A stretch of 64,000 bases of DNA from Patescibacteria group bacterium (GTDB lineage Bacteria > Patescibacteriota > UBA1384 > GWA2-35-9 > JBASTP01): positions 96,529-160,528 of the forward strand of contig JBASTP010000006.1 in NCBI GenBank assembly GCA_049274945.1. The letters run 5' to 3'. The first letter of the stretch is position 1, and every line of letters starts with the position of its first letter. The notes under the pieces were generated by a model. It was not told where the DNA came from and did not search any database. It worked only from the letters and a program-made list of their open reading frames with translations. Below, in pieces: positions 9,922 through 38,221 of the stretch. The position numbers and the translations under genes were made by a program.

Positions 9922-10110
9922 TTGTTATATTCTCCTTTTTATCCCCAACTACTATTTCTATTTAATATATATATTTTAATAATTGCAATAGTAAGAGTTG
10001 TGGATAACGGGGATAAACAGGACTAATGTTCGATGGCTGTTCGGTGGAAAGATACCTGAAACTTATCCACAAGTTATCCCCAAGGCAGCAAGAATTGGGT
10101 ATAACAAGTT
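9922..10110. other. putative oriC (dnaA-dnaN intergenic DnaA-box cluster plus AT-rich unwinding element)
   Basis: Perfect DnaA boxes TGTGGATAA (9999-10007) and TTATCCACA (10063-10071). One-mismatch boxes TTATCCCCA at 9949-9957 and 10074-10082. AT-rich tract TTTAATATATATATTTTAATAATTGCAATAG at 9961-9990. Confidence 0.6.
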
Positions 10111-11451
10111 TTAAAAATTGGGGCTGGTGATAAGTTCTTTCAGGTGGGTGATCTCAGTCTGAAGGGTATCGGACTGAGAGATTCCCCGGTTAATCACCCC
10201 AAAGCCGTGCATGATGGTAGTGTGGTCTCTGTCCCCAAGCAGGTTACCGATCTGGGGATAACTCATATTAACCTCGTTGCGCAACAAGTACATGGCAATG
10301 TGCCTGGGGTAGACTAGTTCTTTTGAGCGTTTTTTCCCCATTAAATCTTCTCGGCTCACCCCAAAGAACCGGCAGATTGCCTCCACTACTCGTTCCGGTT
10401 CCACTTTCATCTGGTTTTGGTCGACAAATGACTCGAGCGCCTTCACCGCGTTGTCGAGCGTGGTCTCGAGCCGGTTGAGCTGGCAGTAGCCAATAATTCG
10501 GTTTAATGCCCCCTCGAGTTCTCGAATATTCGATTTCACGTGGTTTGCCACGTAGTCAACAATATCCCCGTCGAGTGTGATACCCCGTTCCGCGCACTTG
10601 GCCAGGATAATCGCTTGCCGCGTTTCGGTATTGGGAGTTTGGATATCGGTAACCATGCCCATACCAAAGCGCGACGAGAGCCGTTCCTCCAAATCAGAAA
10701 TCGCCTTGGGCATGCGGTCGGCGGTCATTACAATCTGGCGGTTGCTCTGGTGGAGGGCATTGAAGGTGTGGAAAAACTCTTCCTGGGTGCCTTCTTTGCG
10801 GGCAAGAAACTGGATATCATCAACCAAAAAAACATCGACGTTGCGGTACTTGTGCTTGAAGCTGTCCACGGTTTTCAGCTGGAGCGATTGGATGAACTCG
10901 TTGGTAAAGTCTTCGCAGGAAACGTAGCTGATTTTGAGTTTTGGGGCATTGCGGAGAATGTGGTTGCCAATCGCGCTAATCAGGTGGGTTTTCCCCAGCC
11001 CCACGCCGCCGTAGATATAGAGTGGATTATGGAGTTTGCCCGGGTTCTCAGCCACATTTTTACAAGCGGCAAAGGCGAACCGGTTGGATTGCCCAACCAC
11101 AAAGTTATCGAAGGTATAGTCTGATTTGAGCCGACCATTGGTGTTGCTGGTGTTGTTAATACTGACGACCGGGCCGCTTACAATGGGTTGGAGGGCCGGC
11201 GGGGCGATGGTTTGGACCACAAAATCAACGCCGGTAATGTGATCAGCGTGCTTGTGGAGCACCGAGGTGACGACCCGCCGGTACTCGTTTACCATTTTTT
11301 CTTTAATGAAGTCTGACGGCACGGCCACCCGCGCCGTATCACCGTTCACCTCTTTGAGTGTGGTGTGTTTGAACCAGGTGTGGAAGTTGGGCGGCGAGAT
11401 TTCTACTTCAATCTCCCCGAGGGTTGCCTGCCAGAGTTCTGAAAGCTCCAT
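10111..11451 (-). CDS. dnaA: chromosomal replication initiator protein DnaA
   Basis: AAA+ Walker A GGVGLGKTHL, a sensor region, and a C-terminal DnaA-box-binding HTH (…LMGKKRSKELVYPRHIAMYL…). Confidence 0.9.
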   Translation of the reverse strand: MELSELWQATLGEIEVEISPPNFHTWFKHTTLKEVNGDTARVAVPSDFIKEKMVNEYRRVVTSVLHKHADHITGVDFVVQTIAPPALQPIVSGPVVSINNTSNTNGRLKSDYTFDNFVVGQSNRFAFAACKNVAENPGKLHNPLYIYGGVGLGKTHLISAIGNHILRNAPKLKISYVSCEDFTNEFIQSLQLKTVDSFKHKYRNVDVFLVDDIQFLARKEGTQEEFFHTFNALHQSNRQIVMTADRMPKAISDLEERLSSRFGMGMVTDIQTPNTETRQAIILAKCAERGITLDGDIVDYVANHVKSNIRELEGALNRIIGYCQLNRLETTLDNAVKALESFVDQNQMKVEPERVVEAICRFFGVSREDLMGKKRSKELVYPRHIAMYLLRNEVNMSYPQIGNLLGDRDHTTIMHGFGVINRGISQSDTLQTEITHLKELITSPNF

Positions 11452-11484
11452 GTGGTTTTTTCCCTCCTACTTTGATTTACTTCA

Positions 11485-11540
11485 TCATAGTTATCCACAG
11501 CCATATAAGTCAATTGTGGATAGTGGGGATAAGTTAATGG
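11485..11540. promoter_or_regulatory. DnaA-box cluster upstream of dnaA (autoregulatory region / second origin half)
   Basis: TTATCCACA (11491-11499), TGTGGATAG (11515-11523) and GGGGATAAG (11525-11533), all within 90 bp of the dnaA start codon. Confidence 0.55.
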
Positions 11541-11550
11541 CAACAGGTAC

Positions 11551-11795
11551 CGGCTCCCGGGCCACCCTCGGCAGCGCTCTACAGCGGAGTCTGTCCTCGG
11601 CTCGCTTCTTGGTAGCTCCTGCCCACCTTCGGTGGGGCCCGTCGTCCAGGAAGCTCGCCGGGATTGGAGCACCTCGCCTTCGGCGGGTTTCCAATGGCGC
11701 TTGCTTACTGCCTCGGGTTGGCTCCGGTTCGCCGGGTGTCCAGTTTAAACCTTCACACCTCCGAGGTGTGAGTAAGGTCTATATAACAAAAGGCA
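11551..11795. ncRNA. candidate structured RNA element (unclassified), GC-rich
   Basis: ~65% GC stretch with two UUCG-tetraloop hairpins: GCCCACC-UUCG-GGUGGG (~11622-11637) and CGCC-UUCG-GCG (~11675-11685). A nested helix AUUGGA...UCCAAU encloses the second, and a terminal hairpin CACACC...GGUGUG sits at ~11753-11769. No CDS with coding features. The family could not be assigned. Confidence 0.2.
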
Positions 11796-11806
11796 GAATA
11801 TCTATG

Positions 11807-12484
11807 CTACTCTGCCCGAGACTCTTTTTGGAATGTAGCTTGCCACATTATTTTTGTATCATTTTCGAATCGTTGATCGGAACGCGGCGATTCGGTGGCA
11901 AGTTTAATAATCAGCGAATTTTCTTCTGCCAGTTGTTCGAGTTGATCTCTAGTGTAATGAAATAAGAGATCTTTATTCTCGGATTTTATGCGTGTTGCCG
12001 GCACTCTCATAAAAAACAATCCATTATCTTGTAGTACCCGGTTAATTTCAGAAAAGGCTTTCTTTGCCCCTTCCCAAGGGATACTGTGCAGGCTGGCATT
12101 GCTAATAATTGCTTTAAATGATTGATCTGCAAAGGGCAGCTTATAGAAACTTGCTTCGCTTAAATGAGCATCTAAGTTTTTATCTTTCAGTATTTGTTTT
12201 GCCTCCTTGAGCGCCGTTGCAGAAATATCTATACCAAAGGTATTAAGACCCTGCTCAGCCATGTAGGTAAGATTCCTTCCATTACCGCACCCTATTTCGA
12301 GGACTTTGTCTCCTGGTTTAATCTCATCATGATGTTCTTCAAAAAAACGACGTATAAGGCTGGCCACGTTTTTCATCTCGGCATGATAACCTTCTTGATA
12401 TTTTCTATCCCAACCCTCCCTTGATTGTTGTTCGGCTTTGGCCAGTTCTTCTTCGGGTATCGGCTCTCTTTCTAACATGATCAT
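11807..12484 (-). CDS. class I SAM-dependent methyltransferase
   Basis: Motif I VLEIGCGNGRNL in a Rossmann-fold methyltransferase. First gene of an AT-rich block. Confidence 0.7.
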   Translation of the reverse strand: MIMLEREPIPEEELAKAEQQSREGWDRKYQEGYHAEMKNVASLIRRFFEEHHDEIKPGDKVLEIGCGNGRNLTYMAEQGLNTFGIDISATALKEAKQILKDKNLDAHLSEASFYKLPFADQSFKAIISNASLHSIPWEGAKKAFSEINRVLQDNGLFFMRVPATRIKSENKDLLFHYTRDQLEQLAEENSLIIKLATESPRSDQRFENDTKIMWQATFQKESRAE

Positions 12485-13056
12485 TCCTTTGTAAAAGATC
12501 TCTGTTGAAGCAGACCAAATAAATCTATCTTATTTGATTTGAAATAGTCAAACGTATCCACATAAATCTTTTCTAAACCTCGTTGATAGGCTGGATTATT
12601 TTTTATGGGAGGAGAAGTCACGATAATCCCAAATTTATCCCGCATCATTTCAATTGCTGATTTTTGTAATAGTTTGGGATAGTAGGTGTATATTTCCGAG
12701 ACTCTAAAAATAGATGCAGCTGCTAAGTTCAGGGATAAACCGGCAGGGAGATTAGTTGTTTGCAATATTTCTAGTGCAGCCCCCATTTGTCGTTTATCAA
12801 TTTCCACCCGCTCTATATTTTGAACTGTGTGGAAAGAATCCATGAATCGATAGAAAATGTCTTGATCGTCTTTTTTGAGATTCCAGATAATATCATCAAC
12901 AAGGGAGTTCTCGTTGTAGGTAATAACCCCAATATTTTTCTCCTGCCCCTTAAGACTGATGAGAGCTTGCGATCCTTTAGCCGCAAGGCGCAGCTCTTCG
13001 TTTGCCAGAGAGAACTGACCAAGATGGATTGTTGCGTCAAACATTATTTTTTTCAT
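12481..13056 (-). CDS. hypothetical protein (low-GC island)
   Basis: 191-aa ORF with 4-nt overlaps to both neighbours. AT-rich codon usage like the adjacent genes. No recognisable motif. Confidence 0.4.
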   Translation of the reverse strand: MKKIMFDATIHLGQFSLANEELRLAAKGSQALISLKGQEKNIGVITYNENSLVDDIIWNLKKDDQDIFYRFMDSFHTVQNIERVEIDKRQMGAALEILQTTNLPAGLSLNLAAASIFRVSEIYTYYPKLLQKSAIEMMRDKFGIIVTSPPIKNNPAYQRGLEKIYVDTFDYFKSNKIDLFGLLQQRSFTKE

Positions 13057-13844
13057 CTTTTCGCCTCCTTAACCGGTTCAGCTGATCGCAAAATTCCTCT
13101 CCTTACCAGTTCTTTTTTAATATACAAATACCATTCATTATCTCCGAGATGAAATTTGTTAAATTTTTCTAGAATTTTTTGGTTGATAGTTTCACTTTGC
13201 GTTTCGAACATTTCGCGACAAAACTGCGGTTCCAAATTTGCTAAAGAGACCATGTAGCCATCGCACCCGTAAGAGTTTCCAAGTAAGTTGTCCATCCCCT
13301 GAAAAATCGCCATTTCTAATTTATTTACTTTGCGCATTTCAATCATTTTTTGCATAAGTTCAGGGTTTTGTGAACTATCTTTAATGCCAACAATTTTATC
13401 AAGTTTATTAAGTTGAACGATATCCTCAATATTTTCTAATGAATTATCTTGTGAGTTGTATGCGATGATCGGCAAAACACTCATTTTGTTGACAGCTTTG
13501 TAATACGACAAAATTTGTTTTGAAGATGTACCGTGGGAAGAAACGGCAACAGCGCTACATCCTAGAATTAATGCTTCGTTGGTTAATTCATGAATATTAG
13601 CCAATGATTGTTTAAGTATGCCAGCAATAACTGGTTTATTACTTTTTGAGCGGACTGCCCTCACCGCTTCTCGCCACATATCGCTAGAAAGCTTTTCTCC
13701 TTCGCCGGTACTAAGACATGGTACATAACCGTCTATAAATTGATCAACTGAATCGATTAATTTATGCATTGATTCTCGATCAAATTTTCCCTTGTATACT
13801 GGAGTTATCAAGGGAACATAGATACCTTTTAGATTAATTTTCAT
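13053..13844 (-). CDS. DapA/NAL-family class I aldolase (dihydrodipicolinate synthase / N-acetylneuraminate lyase-like)
   Basis: Motifs STGEGEKLS (GxTGE), a Schiff-base lysine context VGIKDSS, and a YN motif (IIAYNSQ). Confidence 0.6.
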   Translation of the reverse strand: MKINLKGIYVPLITPVYKGKFDRESMHKLIDSVDQFIDGYVPCLSTGEGEKLSSDMWREAVRAVRSKSNKPVIAGILKQSLANIHELTNEALILGCSAVAVSSHGTSSKQILSYYKAVNKMSVLPIIAYNSQDNSLENIEDIVQLNKLDKIVGIKDSSQNPELMQKMIEMRKVNKLEMAIFQGMDNLLGNSYGCDGYMVSLANLEPQFCREMFETQSETINQKILEKFNKFHLGDNEWYLYIKKELVRRGILRSAEPVKEAKR

Positions 13845-15043
13845 TGCGATTCGGTGACTTTATCTAGTGCCCGGCGGACCAATTGAATTGCAGGCTTAAA
13901 CATTTCGGTATTGCGAGCTAAAGCAATACGGATAAATTGTTCGCCCTGAGAACGATCATCCCAGAAAAAATATGTCCCTGGTAATACATAAACTCCTTCC
14001 TTTAAAATAGCTTGTTGCAAATAAGTTGCTTTAAATTTTGGATTGGTAATTTTAAACCAGGCAACGCTTACTTTTGATTTAGGTTCTTGATATTCAAGCA
14101 ACGAACCAGACAGTTCTTTTTTGGCTATTTTGCGGTTACGCTCCAAGAGATCATATACTGAGGCAAATTTATCTTTTTTCGAATCAACAATGTATTGAGT
14201 CAACAAGTTTAGGATAAAAGGCGAAACATTTAATAGGTAGCTTGTTTGGATATTGTAAACGTCTTGCCAAATATTCCTACTCGTTTTAATGAGCGCTGTT
14301 TTTGTATCTTGAACTGGCCATGTTTTACCAGTGTCCTCAATTGAAATATAAGTGACACCTGATTTTTCGAGCATCTCGTAGAGATCAAAAACATCTAAAT
14401 TGCGGTCCGGTAACATAAAAGAGGCAAAACAAAAGTCAAAAATCAATAATTTTTTCTTATCTTTCGCAAATCTTATTAACTCTCGATAGGCTGTTTTATC
14501 ATAGGCAAATAAGGTGAATCCAGTAGGATTATTGGGATCAACAATGAAGATAGCATCACTTTTGACATGCTTATTCAGGGTTTTGTAAATTTTTGAGGGA
14601 TCATATAACCATTCTTCCTTGAGGGGTTCTATCTTGATTTGCATATTGGCGAGCAGATCGTGAATATTATCAAAACAGGGCTCCATTAAACTTACTGACA
14701 TCTTCTTTTTCATAAGATAGTTGGCGACAATTGCCATCGCAATTGAGGCGGCATAAACTAGGAGTGCATTATTTGGTTTGAGTGCGTAATATTGCCCTTG
14801 AGCTCGGAAAAAAGTTTTAATAAACCTTTGTTCCATATCATACTGTTTGGTATTTTCGGCTTCGTACCACAGACTGGGAAGGCGATCGATAATTTTTCGT
14901 TGAGATGAAGATTGCGATTGATGGGTGTGGGCATCCGCCAAGTTATATTCTAACTTTAAGGCTTCAATTTCGTGTTGCGTGAGATCTTGGTATTCTTTTT
15001 TTGGCTTTATGCCAAAAATTTTCTCTTTAATGTATTTGAGCAT
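13841..15043 (-). CDS. PLP-dependent aminotransferase, class I/II-like
   Basis: IFIVDPNNPTG (the NPxNPTG motif of fold-type I aminotransferases). 400 aa. Overlaps the downstream aldolase gene by 4 nt. Confidence 0.5.
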   Translation of the reverse strand: MLKYIKEKIFGIKPKKEYQDLTQHEIEALKLEYNLADAHTHQSQSSSQRKIIDRLPSLWYEAENTKQYDMEQRFIKTFFRAQGQYYALKPNNALLVYAASIAMAIVANYLMKKKMSVSLMEPCFDNIHDLLANMQIKIEPLKEEWLYDPSKIYKTLNKHVKSDAIFIVDPNNPTGFTLFAYDKTAYRELIRFAKDKKKLLIFDFCFASFMLPDRNLDVFDLYEMLEKSGVTYISIEDTGKTWPVQDTKTALIKTSRNIWQDVYNIQTSYLLNVSPFILNLLTQYIVDSKKDKFASVYDLLERNRKIAKKELSGSLLEYQEPKSKVSVAWFKITNPKFKATYLQQAILKEGVYVLPGTYFFWDDRSQGEQFIRIALARNTEMFKPAIQLVRRALDKVTESQ

Positions 15044-15103
15044 TAATCAAATTATACTCCGAACGGATGGATTCGTTAATGAAAATATGATAAAATCTGA
15101 CTG

Positions 15104-15238
15104 ATGAAACGAACTTACCAGCCCAATAAGCGACGCCGGGCAAAAAAGCACGGATTCTTGAGTAGAATGCGCACTCGGGTAACCCAACGGGTGCTCAAGC
15201 GCCGCCGCGCTAGGGGGAGAAAACGATTAACCGTTTAA
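15104..15238 (+). CDS. rpmH: 50S ribosomal protein L34
   Basis: 44-aa [47 protein letters not shown]. It is below the ORF-track size cut-off and was translated by hand. Confidence 0.9.
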
Positions 15239-15288
15239 CCAGGTCGGAGCTCGACGGGCTCTTTAAGCGGGTCAAGCCGGTCAAAACC

Positions 15289-15525
15289 GTGCATTTCAGC
15301 TATCGCATGAAGCCGGCAGCTACCCTTGCCACGGCCGTGGTGGTACCCAAGAGTGTTTCGACCAAAGCCACGGTGCGCAATCGCCTGCGGCGCAAGGTAA
15401 AGGGGGTGCTCCAAGTGTTGGGACGGAGTGGCGCAACCGGAGAGTTGGTAGTTGTAGTCCATAAGCCTTTTGCGTTACCATTTACAGAGCTAAAGAGCGA
15501 GTTAGAGCAATGTTTCAAGGCTTAG
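15289..15525 (+). CDS. rnpA: ribonuclease P protein component (5' end uncertain)
   Basis: [24 protein letters not shown] matches the RnpA RNR motif region. RnpA-like residues ([21 protein letters not shown]) continue upstream in frame to 15214 with no ATG/GTG/TTG. The GTG at 15289 is the first canonical start. Confidence 0.6.
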
Positions 15526-15749
15526 CGTTATCGCTCATAAAGTGGTACCAGCGCACCCTTTCGCCAGATCATAGCCCGCTTAAGCAGTATTTCCCGGGTG
15601 GGTACTGCAAATATTCACCCTCCTGTTCCGAGTATAGCTACCAGGCGATTGCTCGCCATGGTGTGGTGAAGGGCGGCTGGCTCGCGGCGTGGCGAATTCT
15701 GCGGTGCAATCCGTGGTCATCGGGCGGAAGTGACCCGGTAGGGCCATGA
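15510..15749 (+). CDS. yidD: membrane protein insertion efficiency factor YidD
   Basis: Hallmark YQRTLSP...[10 protein letters not shown] motif. Overlaps rnpA by 16 nt. Confidence 0.85.
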
Positions 15750-15878
15750 ATAATGAAGTACCACAACCACAGATATTTGATCCACAGATAAACACAGATC
15801 AGGTATGCCCCAATCAGTGATTATCAGTGGATTAACATCAGTGGTTGTTTACCTACCTTTTTAAAATATAACCCGAAC

Positions 15879-16719: not shown

Positions 16720-17154
16720 ATGGATTCCAAAGATTTCAAAAAAAATATCTTCATCGAAAATACGGTCAAGAACATTTTTATTGTCTTACTTCTTGTGTTA
16801 AGTTTTGGTTTTTTTCGGACTTATCTTTTATCGGTGAATCCAATCGGGGGGGGGTATGATAGTATTCTTTTAGTTTCTTCAATATTTATCGTTTCATTTC
16901 TTTTCGCCGATTACGGTTTTACGTACAAAGATTCTCATATGACAAATGAGATTCAGAGATTGCTTAGTCATTCAATTACCACGTTGATTATGTATGGTAC
17001 CGGAGCACTTCTCGAAATCTCAAGTATTACCATTAATTTAAAAATTGGGAAGCCATTTTTGCCCTTCGAACTTCTTATGGTTTTGTTCTACATTTCTCTT
17101 GTCATGTATGATTATTGGGATCTCAATCGGGCATTCTTGAAAAAATCGCGATAA
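16720..17154 (+). CDS. hypothetical small membrane protein (AT-rich)
   Basis: 144 aa with three or four predicted TM helices. AT-rich relative to its neighbours. Lies immediately 5' of tRNA-Ser. Confidence 0.4.
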   Translation: MDSKDFKKNIFIENTVKNIFIVLLLVLSFGFFRTYLLSVNPIGGGYDSILLVSSIFIVSFLFADYGFTYKDSHMTNEIQRLLSHSITTLIMYGTGALLEISSITINLKIGKPFLPFELLMVLFYISLVMYDYWDLNRAFLKKSR

Positions 17155-37831: not shown

Positions 37832-38221
37832 TTATTCGATTCTTTTACTGTGCTTTTTGAGCCACTGGGCGATTTTGTCTTCGGGGAGCGAGTTATTTTC
37901 AATTTCTAGGGCGAGTCCATATAAGTGATTTTTTGATTGGATTAATTGGTAGCCGTTTTCTTCTAGAAACATACCTATTGATGCGATTGCAGTGCGTTTA
38001 TTGCCATCAACAAACGGGTGATTTTTAAGGAGCGAATGTCCTAACACGGCTGCCTTCATAAAAAGATCGGGGTAGGCTTCGAAGTCTCCAAAACCAGCTC
38101 GCGGTCGCGCAACAGCAGAATCCACGAGTCCGTAATCTCGGACACCCTGCGAACCGCCATACCTAATAACGAGCTCCTCGTGGATCTCGAGTACCGTTTC
38201 CGTGGCGAGATAACGGGTCAT
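37832..38221 (-). CDS. doc: Doc (death-on-curing) toxin, Fic-fold
   Basis: The Doc-specific motif HPFVDGNKRTA is present. 129 aa. Confidence 0.8.
   Translation of the reverse strand: MTRYLATETVLEIHEELVIRYGGSQGVRDYGLVDSAVARPRAGFGDFEAYPDLFMKAAVLGHSLLKNHPFVDGNKRTAIASIGMFLEENGYQLIQSKNHLYGLALEIENNSLPEDKIAQWLKKHSKRIE

Follow-up and report, generated by a model that had tools for sequence, protein, structure and literature searches.

An acquired roh-like operon between dnaA and rpmH in a Berkelbacteria-like member of the Patescibacteria, with 2-aminoimidazole as its probable end point

Introduction

The closest described counterpart of the locus reported here is the rohPQRST cluster for azomycin (2-nitroimidazole), known from Streptomyces and Pseudomonas (Hedges & Ryan 2019, as reviewed in PMC10724926, PMC12713392 and PMC13133933). 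In this pathway, the successive action of RohP, the retro-aldolase RohR and the cyclodehydratase RohQ leads from L-arginine to 2-aminoimidazole, which RohS, a heme-oxygenase-like diiron N-oxygenase, then turns into azomycin (PMC10724926, PMC13133933). RohP, MppP and MilM are L-arginine oxidases that depend on pyridoxal phosphate (PLP) and O2 and form (S)-4-hydroxy-2-ketoarginine (PMC12464687). Here we describe a low-GC island of four genes between dnaA and rpmH in 64,000 nucleotides of DNA (the window; GenBank assembly GCA_049274945.1, contig JBASTP010000006.1, positions 96,529 to 160,528 of the forward strand) from a Patescibacteria group bacterium whose nearest named DnaA relatives are Candidatus Berkelbacteria. 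We consider it probable that the island, an acquired operon upstream of rpmH in a Berkelbacteria-like member of the Patescibacteria, encodes the first three enzymes of azomycin formation in the order P-R-Q, with 2-aminoimidazole as the likely end point. The island is a real, horizontally acquired and mechanistically interpretable variation on the known roh pathway, for which the product and the role are predicted.

RohP-, RohR- and RohQ-type genes in the island

The island holds four open reading frames (ORFs), all on the minus strand and listed here in the order of transcription:

13841-15043, minus strand: 400-aa fold-type I PLP enzyme, putative RohP/MppP-type O2-dependent L-arginine oxidase/4-hydroxylase (P; match to PDB 6c3a)
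13053-13844, minus strand: 263-aa class I (Schiff-base) aldolase of the DHDPS family, putative RohR-like retro-aldolase (R; Pfam DHDPS, 82.4 bits)
12481-13056, minus strand: 191-aa DUF6190 protein, putative RohQ-family cyclodehydratase for guanidinoacetaldehyde to 2-aminoimidazole (Q; Pfam DUF6190, 59.5 bits)
11807-12484, minus strand: 225-aa class I S-adenosylmethionine (SAM)-dependent methyltransferase, an orphan (Pfam Methyltransf_25/11/31, and TPMT with 39.5 bits)

An earlier annotation made from the DNA letters alone (the sequence-only reading) had named a methyltransferase, a hypothetical protein, an aldolase of the DHDPS/N-acetylneuraminate lyase (NAL) family and a protein of the class I/II aminotransferase fold. 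These family labels agree with Pfam, and the more specific ones shift on closer comparison. P had been called an aminotransferase. It matches Streptomyces RohP (PDB 6c3a) with 474.5 bits (E = 2.7e-141, 54% identity over 378 ungapped residues), followed in the PDB search by MppP with 183 bits. The PLP lysine (DTGKTWP) and the N-terminal residues T22, E25, D37 and H39, equivalent to T12, E15, D27 and H29 of MppP, are kept in P and are invariant in 28 homologues. P is a RohP/MppP-type PLP- and O2-dependent arginine oxidase-hydroxylase by predicted activity, and not a transaminase. The MppP/MppQ/MppR enduracididine pathway and MilM of mildiomycin formation have a first enzyme of the same PLP/O2-dependent arginine 4-hydroxylase family. 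The best NCBIfam model for P is indeed MppP (TIGR04462), but the island differs from that system in the score, 161 bits against an equivalog cut-off of 450, and in the partners of P, which are an aldolase and a DUF6190 protein rather than MppR and MppQ.

RohP-like proteins are numerous, with 1,700 at E < 1e-40, and those closest to P come from metagenome contigs and are at most 79% identical. Named carriers in the protein search are Yanofskybacteria, Paceibacterota, Patescibacteria and a Pacearchaeota archaeon. Genome matches were found in Doudnabacteria, Uhrbacteria and proteobacterial metagenome-assembled genomes (MAGs). In one Uhrbacteria MAG (L007, 9971-11118) the RohP-like gene lies in two ORFs of 90 and 296 aa beside a tyrosine integrase, possibly a frameshift or a pseudogene.

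The aldolase R had been labelled DapA/NAL-like. It scores far below the cut-offs of both models (75.7 against 206.15 for DapA, TIGR00674; 48.5 against 281 for NAL, NF003164) and is better described as a RohR-type partner of P. R has the TIM-barrel class I aldolase fold and the Schiff-base lysine in common with DapA and NAL. The Schiff-base residue Lys155 and Tyr129 do not vary among 54 aldolases encoded next to RohP. In an alignment to DHDPS, the equivalents of DHDPS Tyr107 and Arg138 are not conserved in R. The genomic partners of R are RohP- and RohQ-type genes rather than lysine or sialic-acid genes. R is assigned to the RohR type, with the predicted reaction from 4-hydroxy-2-ketoarginine to pyruvate and guanidinoacetaldehyde. 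The family scores and the RohP and RohQ identities rule out a sugar-modification cassette of NAL, aminotransferase and methyltransferase. Of the two functions that the sequence-only reading had offered, an amino-acid-derived pathway is retained and a modified sugar is dropped.

Q had been left as a hypothetical protein and can now be given a name. As a single sequence, Q matches RohQ in the PDB weakly. An exhaustive HMMER search for DUF6190 relatives gave 43 representative clusters among 1.84 billion proteins, and a profile of 29 DUF6190 sequences matches the RohQ structures 9c5w/9oq8 over their full length (E = 2.1e-28). The AlphaFold2 model of Q has a mean confidence (pLDDT) of 95.7, and in a Foldseek search of the PDB its top ten matches are all RohQ chains (TM-score 0.65-0.80), followed by PIN/VapC folds. 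The invariant and near-invariant residues of DUF6190, which are mostly common to crystallised RohQ, are all present in Q. The start codon is preceded by AAGGAGG 7 nt upstream. Profile and model place Q in the RohQ family (DUF6190, PIN-like fold), with cyclodehydratase activity predicted. Natural fusion proteins (P0283, P0301) join DUF6190 either to a DHDPS-type aldolase, so that an aldolase and a RohQ-like domain share one chain, or to a 2-oxoglutarate-Fe dioxygenase. A functional linkage of the genes is supported by the DHDPS-DUF6190 fusion and by the neighbouring positions of P and R, or of P, R and Q, in about 90 loci. In the literature searched there was no mention of DUF6190 and none of 2-aminoimidazole tied to Patescibacteria.

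Homologues of RohP, RohR and RohQ are thus all present in the island, and the same chemistry from L-arginine to 2-aminoimidazole is therefore expected. In the first step, the RohP-type enzyme would oxidise L-arginine to 4-hydroxy-2-ketoarginine with PLP and O2. The RohR-type class I aldolase would then cleave this intermediate to pyruvate and guanidinoacetaldehyde, and the RohQ-type cyclodehydratase would close guanidinoacetaldehyde to 2-aminoimidazole. The pathway most likely stops there because the nitro-forming RohS is absent from the window. As a fourth step, the small SAM-dependent methyltransferase may yield a methylated derivative. We infer what the enzymes accept and form, the need for O2 in this host, what the methyltransferase acts on, and a role in making a secreted small molecule instead of in catabolism.

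Absence of RohS and comparison with azomycin clusters

A RohS-like hidden Markov model (HMM) was built from the heme-oxygenase-like diiron (PF14518) proteins of four P-Q-R-S loci. It gave no match, even at E <= 10, among all six-frame ORFs of the window, which covers 64 kb of a 214-kb contig in a draft MAG. The comparison was extended by a census of about 90 loci with P and R, or P, R and Q, in adjacent positions, annotated with HMMs for P, R, Q, S, T and a further protein, X142. A neighbour-joining tree of P falls into two clades, with the window in clade B. Clade A loci have high GC and the order P-Q-R-S(-T) or T-P-Q-R-S, where S is a PF14518 protein and T is a methyltransferase resembling protein arginine methyltransferases (PRMT-like; Methyltransf_25 and PRMT5_C). 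Clade B loci have low to mid GC and the order P-R-Q, P-R-X142 or P-R alone, and candidate-phyla bacteria commonly carry them. Where at least 2.5 kb downstream of P was available, RohS was found in 18 of 20 clade A loci, each time directly after R, and in none of 19 clade B loci (Fisher p = 3e-9). Q precedes R in all 24 clade A loci scored, while in clade B the reverse order is seen in 19 of 20. Because one population contributed several near-duplicate loci to the census, these counts overstate the independence of the loci.

The island is not classed as an azomycin cluster, as it differs in RohS, in the fifth gene and in gene order. Azomycin clusters contain RohS, while the window does not and hence lacks the means for the nitro group. 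Their fifth position is held by a PRMT-like methyltransferase of about 340-400 aa, whereas the island encodes a small, unrelated class I enzyme (225 aa, without a PRMT5_C domain, 16 bits against the T-like HMM). Their order is P-Q-R-S(-T), compared with P-R-Q-methyltransferase here. The P protein of the window also belongs to the other clade, its host is a candidate-phyla bacterium, and its setting is a 3.3-kb island at rpmH|dnaA. The PRMT-like gene stands after S or before P in canonical high-GC P-Q-R-S clusters (L084 7441-8460, L100 9441-10574, L061 1640-2782 and 13 further loci) and, judging by this position, is presumably RohT.

The organism could still make azomycin if RohS, and possibly RohT, were encoded elsewhere in its genome. 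P, R and Q are exactly the enzymes for the azomycin precursor, and the reach of the RohS search leaves room for a distant gene. Such a split pathway has only a slight chance of being correct, given that the window has no RohS-like ORF, that RohS is tied to R in clade A and missing throughout clade B, that the gene order departs from P-Q-R, and that the island is a compact transcription unit. Genome mining should accordingly not annotate S-less loci as azomycin producers. A pathway that ends at 2-aminoimidazole itself is suggested instead.

The nearest relatives of the island are S-less modules in uncultured low-GC bacteria (L001-L007, L014-L054, L060, L062-L063, L069), several of them named as Doudna-, Uhr- or Yanofskybacteria, Paceibacterota or Patescibacteria. 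Their P proteins belong to the same clade, with 57-79% identity, and like the window they show the P-R-Q order, no RohS and mostly low GC. An orthologue of the methyltransferase in the window is missing from all of them, and none was seen at dnaA/rpmH. As far as the literature searched goes, such S-less P-R-Q, P-R-X142 and P-R modules are undescribed. The census sets this RohP-type clade, with its other gene order and alternative third genes, apart from true azomycin clusters.

X142 is a conserved 142-aa protein without a Pfam family that accompanies P-R pairs lacking RohQ (L022 7973-8401, L004 2183-2611, also L005, L018-L023, L026, L029, L035, L036, L038 and L050). Full-length copies are 69-87% identical to each other, with weaker or partial matches in L005, L023, L038 and L050. 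A diverged RohQ is ruled out by an hhalign probability of 0.6%, and X142 is a possible alternative for the third enzyme.

As the P-R-X142 variant demonstrates, the third gene can be swapped, and enzymes of the RohP type supply several pathways (MppP, MilM and RohP; PMC12464687). R and Q have also diverged from the canonical enzymes. The island might thus make another arginine-derived product of the enduracididine or mildiomycin type, either from 4-hydroxy-2-ketoarginine or guanidinoacetaldehyde or through an aldolase that condenses rather than cleaves, on which the methyltransferase would act. We regard this as very unlikely. By Pfam, MppR/MppQ-type partners are not among the four island genes, which belong to other families. 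Together, P, a DHDPS-type aldolase and DUF6190 characterise the 2-aminoimidazole branch, and Q retains the full set of conserved DUF6190 residues.

The methyltransferase and the predicted product

The methyltransferase has an intact GxGxG SAM motif (VLEIGCGNG) and a GC content at third codon positions (GC3) of 0.363; the NCBI start lies two codons later than that of ORF 11807-12484. A search of 5.8 billion proteins returned a single near match, its own record (NCBI MFY9484485). The next-best protein (P0002) is 34% identical over 61% of the length and has an unrelated gene context. No orthologue was found in that set, nor beside any other roh-like module in the census. The AlphaFold2 model (pLDDT 83.7) has the fold of a generic small-molecule methyltransferase, and sequence and fold searches of the PDB returned generic class I methyltransferases only. 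A different class I methyltransferase lies two genes downstream in L021/L022, where P is 78% identical.

Oxidative degradation of arginine for nutrition is another conceivable role. The useful product for a metabolically poor cell would then be pyruvate, along with ammonia, and RohQ and the methyltransferase would serve to detoxify guanidinoacetaldehyde and 2-aminoimidazole as waste. Pyruvate is released by the aldolase step (PMC10724926). Many clade B loci consist of P-R only, without tailoring genes, and P-R stands beside NMT1-type substrate-binding proteins in L014 and L001. According to the title of a reference cited in PMC13133933, RohQ speeds up a reaction described as spontaneous. The modules behave as mobile accessory cassettes beside recombinases, unlike core metabolism. 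Characterised homologues of P produce H2O2 and are slow (MilM kcat of about 6 per minute, PMC12464687), a poor basis for energy metabolism. Product-directed pathways typically include a dedicated cyclase and a methyltransferase, and L014 has a small multidrug resistance (SMR)-type efflux gene downstream of P-R. On balance a catabolic module is unlikely, and a pathway directed at 2-aminoimidazole is preferred.

The usual picture of Patescibacteria is one of minimal metabolism in which secondary pathways play little part. If the preferred reading is true, a compact, mobile and O2-dependent pathway from arginine to a heterocycle would be a concrete case of a traded accessory trait in this group. 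Synthetic 2-aminoimidazoles have been studied as anti-biofilm agents. A broader scenario, which we put forward as speculative and rather doubtful, is that S-less roh-like cassettes are widespread and mobile in candidate-phyla and uncultured organisms, with 2-aminoimidazole as end product and, through the unique methyltransferase, N-methyl-2-aminoimidazole in the present case. Ultra-small episymbionts might use it as a diffusible agent against hosts, competitors or biofilms. In this scenario the cassettes would be a bacterial source of the 2-aminoimidazole scaffold and rare evidence of O2-dependent natural-product chemistry in Patescibacteria.

Extent and composition of the island

The sequence-only reading had also described a low-GC stretch of about 3.3 kb between dnaA and rpmH with four co-oriented genes overlapping by 4 nt. 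Both features were recovered. The island (11,807-15,104) has 37.4% GC compared with 53.7% for the remaining window. This corresponds to z = -7.4 relative to equal-sized segments elsewhere (mean 0.539, standard deviation 0.022, minimum 0.486). GC is about 0.50-0.60 along the window and falls to 0.36-0.40 across 12-15 kb. In segments of 200 nt it is 0.30-0.45 throughout ~11,800-15,100 and 0.50-0.62 on both flanks. The island also stands out in tetranucleotide distance to the backbone, with a peak of 0.55 above a baseline of about 0.19. At 0.31-0.37, the GC3 of its four genes lies below the 0.61-0.67 of recF, dnaN, dnaA, rnpA, yidD, yidC and pilB. The composition is hence far from uniform, as had been proposed. 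All three gene junctions are ATGA stop/start overlaps. The elements that frame the genes are the following:

11781-11817, minus strand: terminator-like hairpin GGGCAGAGTAGCATAGATATTCTGCCT followed by a T-tract (hairpin 11817-11791), from a consensus scan; overlaps the methyltransferase stop codon
15051-15079, minus strand: candidate sigma-70-like promoter TTAACG-17-TATAAT, with 10 of 12 consensus matches; ends 8 nt 5' of the rohP-like start codon
15044-15104, no strand: AT-rich divergent spacer of 61 bp between the rohP-like gene and rpmH; rpmH-side island boundary
11452-11780, no strand: backbone dnaA promoter region with three DnaA boxes (11491-11532) and a GC-rich structured element (~11535-11775), partly aligned in relatives

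The hairpin probably closes the island operon at its 3' end and lies approximately at the dnaA-side boundary. This boundary is placed at ~11781-11817 because GC falls there and homology of the backbone to the relative L010 ends at 11556 (blastn) or ~11760 (MAFFT). On the other side, the spacer at 15044-15104 marks the boundary because homology to relatives restarts near the rpmH start codon (15104-15107), in L010 at 15104, one base 5' of that codon. Sigma-70-like consensus matches in the region are no more numerous than in shuffled sequence, and the promoter is a candidate only. The interval ~11,780-15,104 is probably a self-contained operon of a promoter, four translationally coupled genes and a terminator, the promoter and terminator being consensus matches.

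Acquisition and genomic context

The island is flanked by dnaA (10111-11451, minus strand) and rpmH (15105-15239, plus strand; tblastn), and rpmH is followed by rnpA, yidD, yidC and a gene for a PilB-like ATPase. Relatives for synteny were located through DnaA, and the two nearest with usable contigs are L010 and L011. In L011 (DnaA 73% identical), yidC-yidD-rnpA-rpmH is followed by about 370 bp without genes and then by dnaA-dnaN-recF. In L010 (DnaA 89% and DNA about 80% identical), the same rpmH|dnaA slot holds a gene of normal GC for a FabI-like enoyl-acyl carrier protein reductase/short-chain dehydrogenase (1197-1994). The island is lineage-specific, and the slot holds differing cargo in different relatives. 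The FabI-like gene of L010 argues for a recurrent cargo site, and within this lineage the rpmH|dnaA spacer acts as a slot for variable cargo.

The island is compositionally foreign and was horizontally acquired, as follows from the contrast in composition together with its absence at the same locus in both relatives. The sequence-only reading had proposed such an acquisition, and conservation across the lineage, which would have spoken against it, is not seen in these two genomes. Patescibacteria are known in general to carry genomic islands (PMC12455944). Sister modules adjoin large serine recombinases in L005, L015/L016/L024, L021/L022 and L031. Clade B modules are often beside such recombinases or an insertion sequence (IS) element, which fits mobile cassettes; the window lacks these neighbours. 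No homologue of an integrase, a serine recombinase or X142 was found in the window, flanking repeats at the island are short and at chance level, and the single tRNA of the window is 2 kb away. A phage origin was rejected, as two IMG/VR scans (with the protein and with a 28-sequence alignment) gave no RohP relatives. A plasmid origin was rejected as well, with tblastn against PLSDB giving matches of 29-30% identity only.

An extreme contrast in composition within a MAG could also arise if the AT-rich block were a mis-assembly or a chimera from another organism of the metagenome. The independent assembly available, Logan contig L008, covers the rpmH-side junction and not the dnaA-side one. It matches window positions 13306-15782 at 100% identity and spans the boundary of island and rpmH. 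Both junctions are clean within one intergenic slot, which in the nearest relative contains a different insert. The island proteins and DnaA are singletons in NCBI, and their consecutive accessions (MFY9484484-88) run across the junctions on the 214-kb contig. An artefact is therefore highly improbable, and the island is treated as a genuine acquisition.

Beyond the redundancy of the census and the reach of the RohS search given above, several points weigh against an acquired 2-aminoimidazole operon. Many Patescibacteria are regarded as anaerobic fermenters, whereas RohP chemistry needs O2. R is only 28-31% identical, over its full length, to aldolases from canonical P-Q-R-S clusters, and Q is only about 27% identical to canonical RohQ counterparts. 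For the methyltransferase, we infer participation in the pathway from operon position and shared composition only. No integrase, att-like repeats or tRNA were found in the island, and even the nearest P, with only 79% identity, does not point to a donor. MilM, about 60% identical to RohP in its authors' alignment, serves a different pathway (PMC12464687), and P by itself therefore does not fix the product.

Origin region and neighbouring features

Three DnaA boxes lie upstream of dnaA (11491-11532) and four in the dnaA-dnaN spacer (9939-10082), and the two clusters around dnaA suggest a bipartite origin. The DnaA-box stretch upstream of dnaA is kept in both L010 and L011. The island lies outside both clusters and leaves them and the adjoining GC-rich element intact. 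The cargo slot thus accommodates an insert with the DnaA-box clusters undisturbed.

The GC-rich element (11535-11775, GC 0.59-0.62) is non-coding and strongly structured and lies between the upstream DnaA boxes and the island. Its minimum free energy has z = -5.35 (minus strand) and -4.1 (plus strand), with several hairpin loops of the CCGAAGG/CCGAGG type. Counterparts are found in L010 (1995-2215) and L011 (1320-1600), and the partial alignment in these two relatives assigns the element to the backbone. Rfam scans of the window and of 11380-11900 gave a tRNA as the sole match, and a known RNA is ruled out for the element.

Between yidC and tRNA-Ser(cga) lies an AT-rich ORF of 144 aa (16720-17154, plus strand), for which the sequence-only reading had pointed out a composition similar to that of the island. 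The values bear this out (GC 0.336, GC3 0.37), and no link between the ORF and the island was found. It has four hydrophobic segments by eye and no Pfam or NCBIfam match, is a singleton, and is called in a Logan contig only and not by NCBI. A gene for a Fic/Doc-family toxin (37832-38221, minus strand) is located in another patch of lower GC at ~37.2-38.1 kb.

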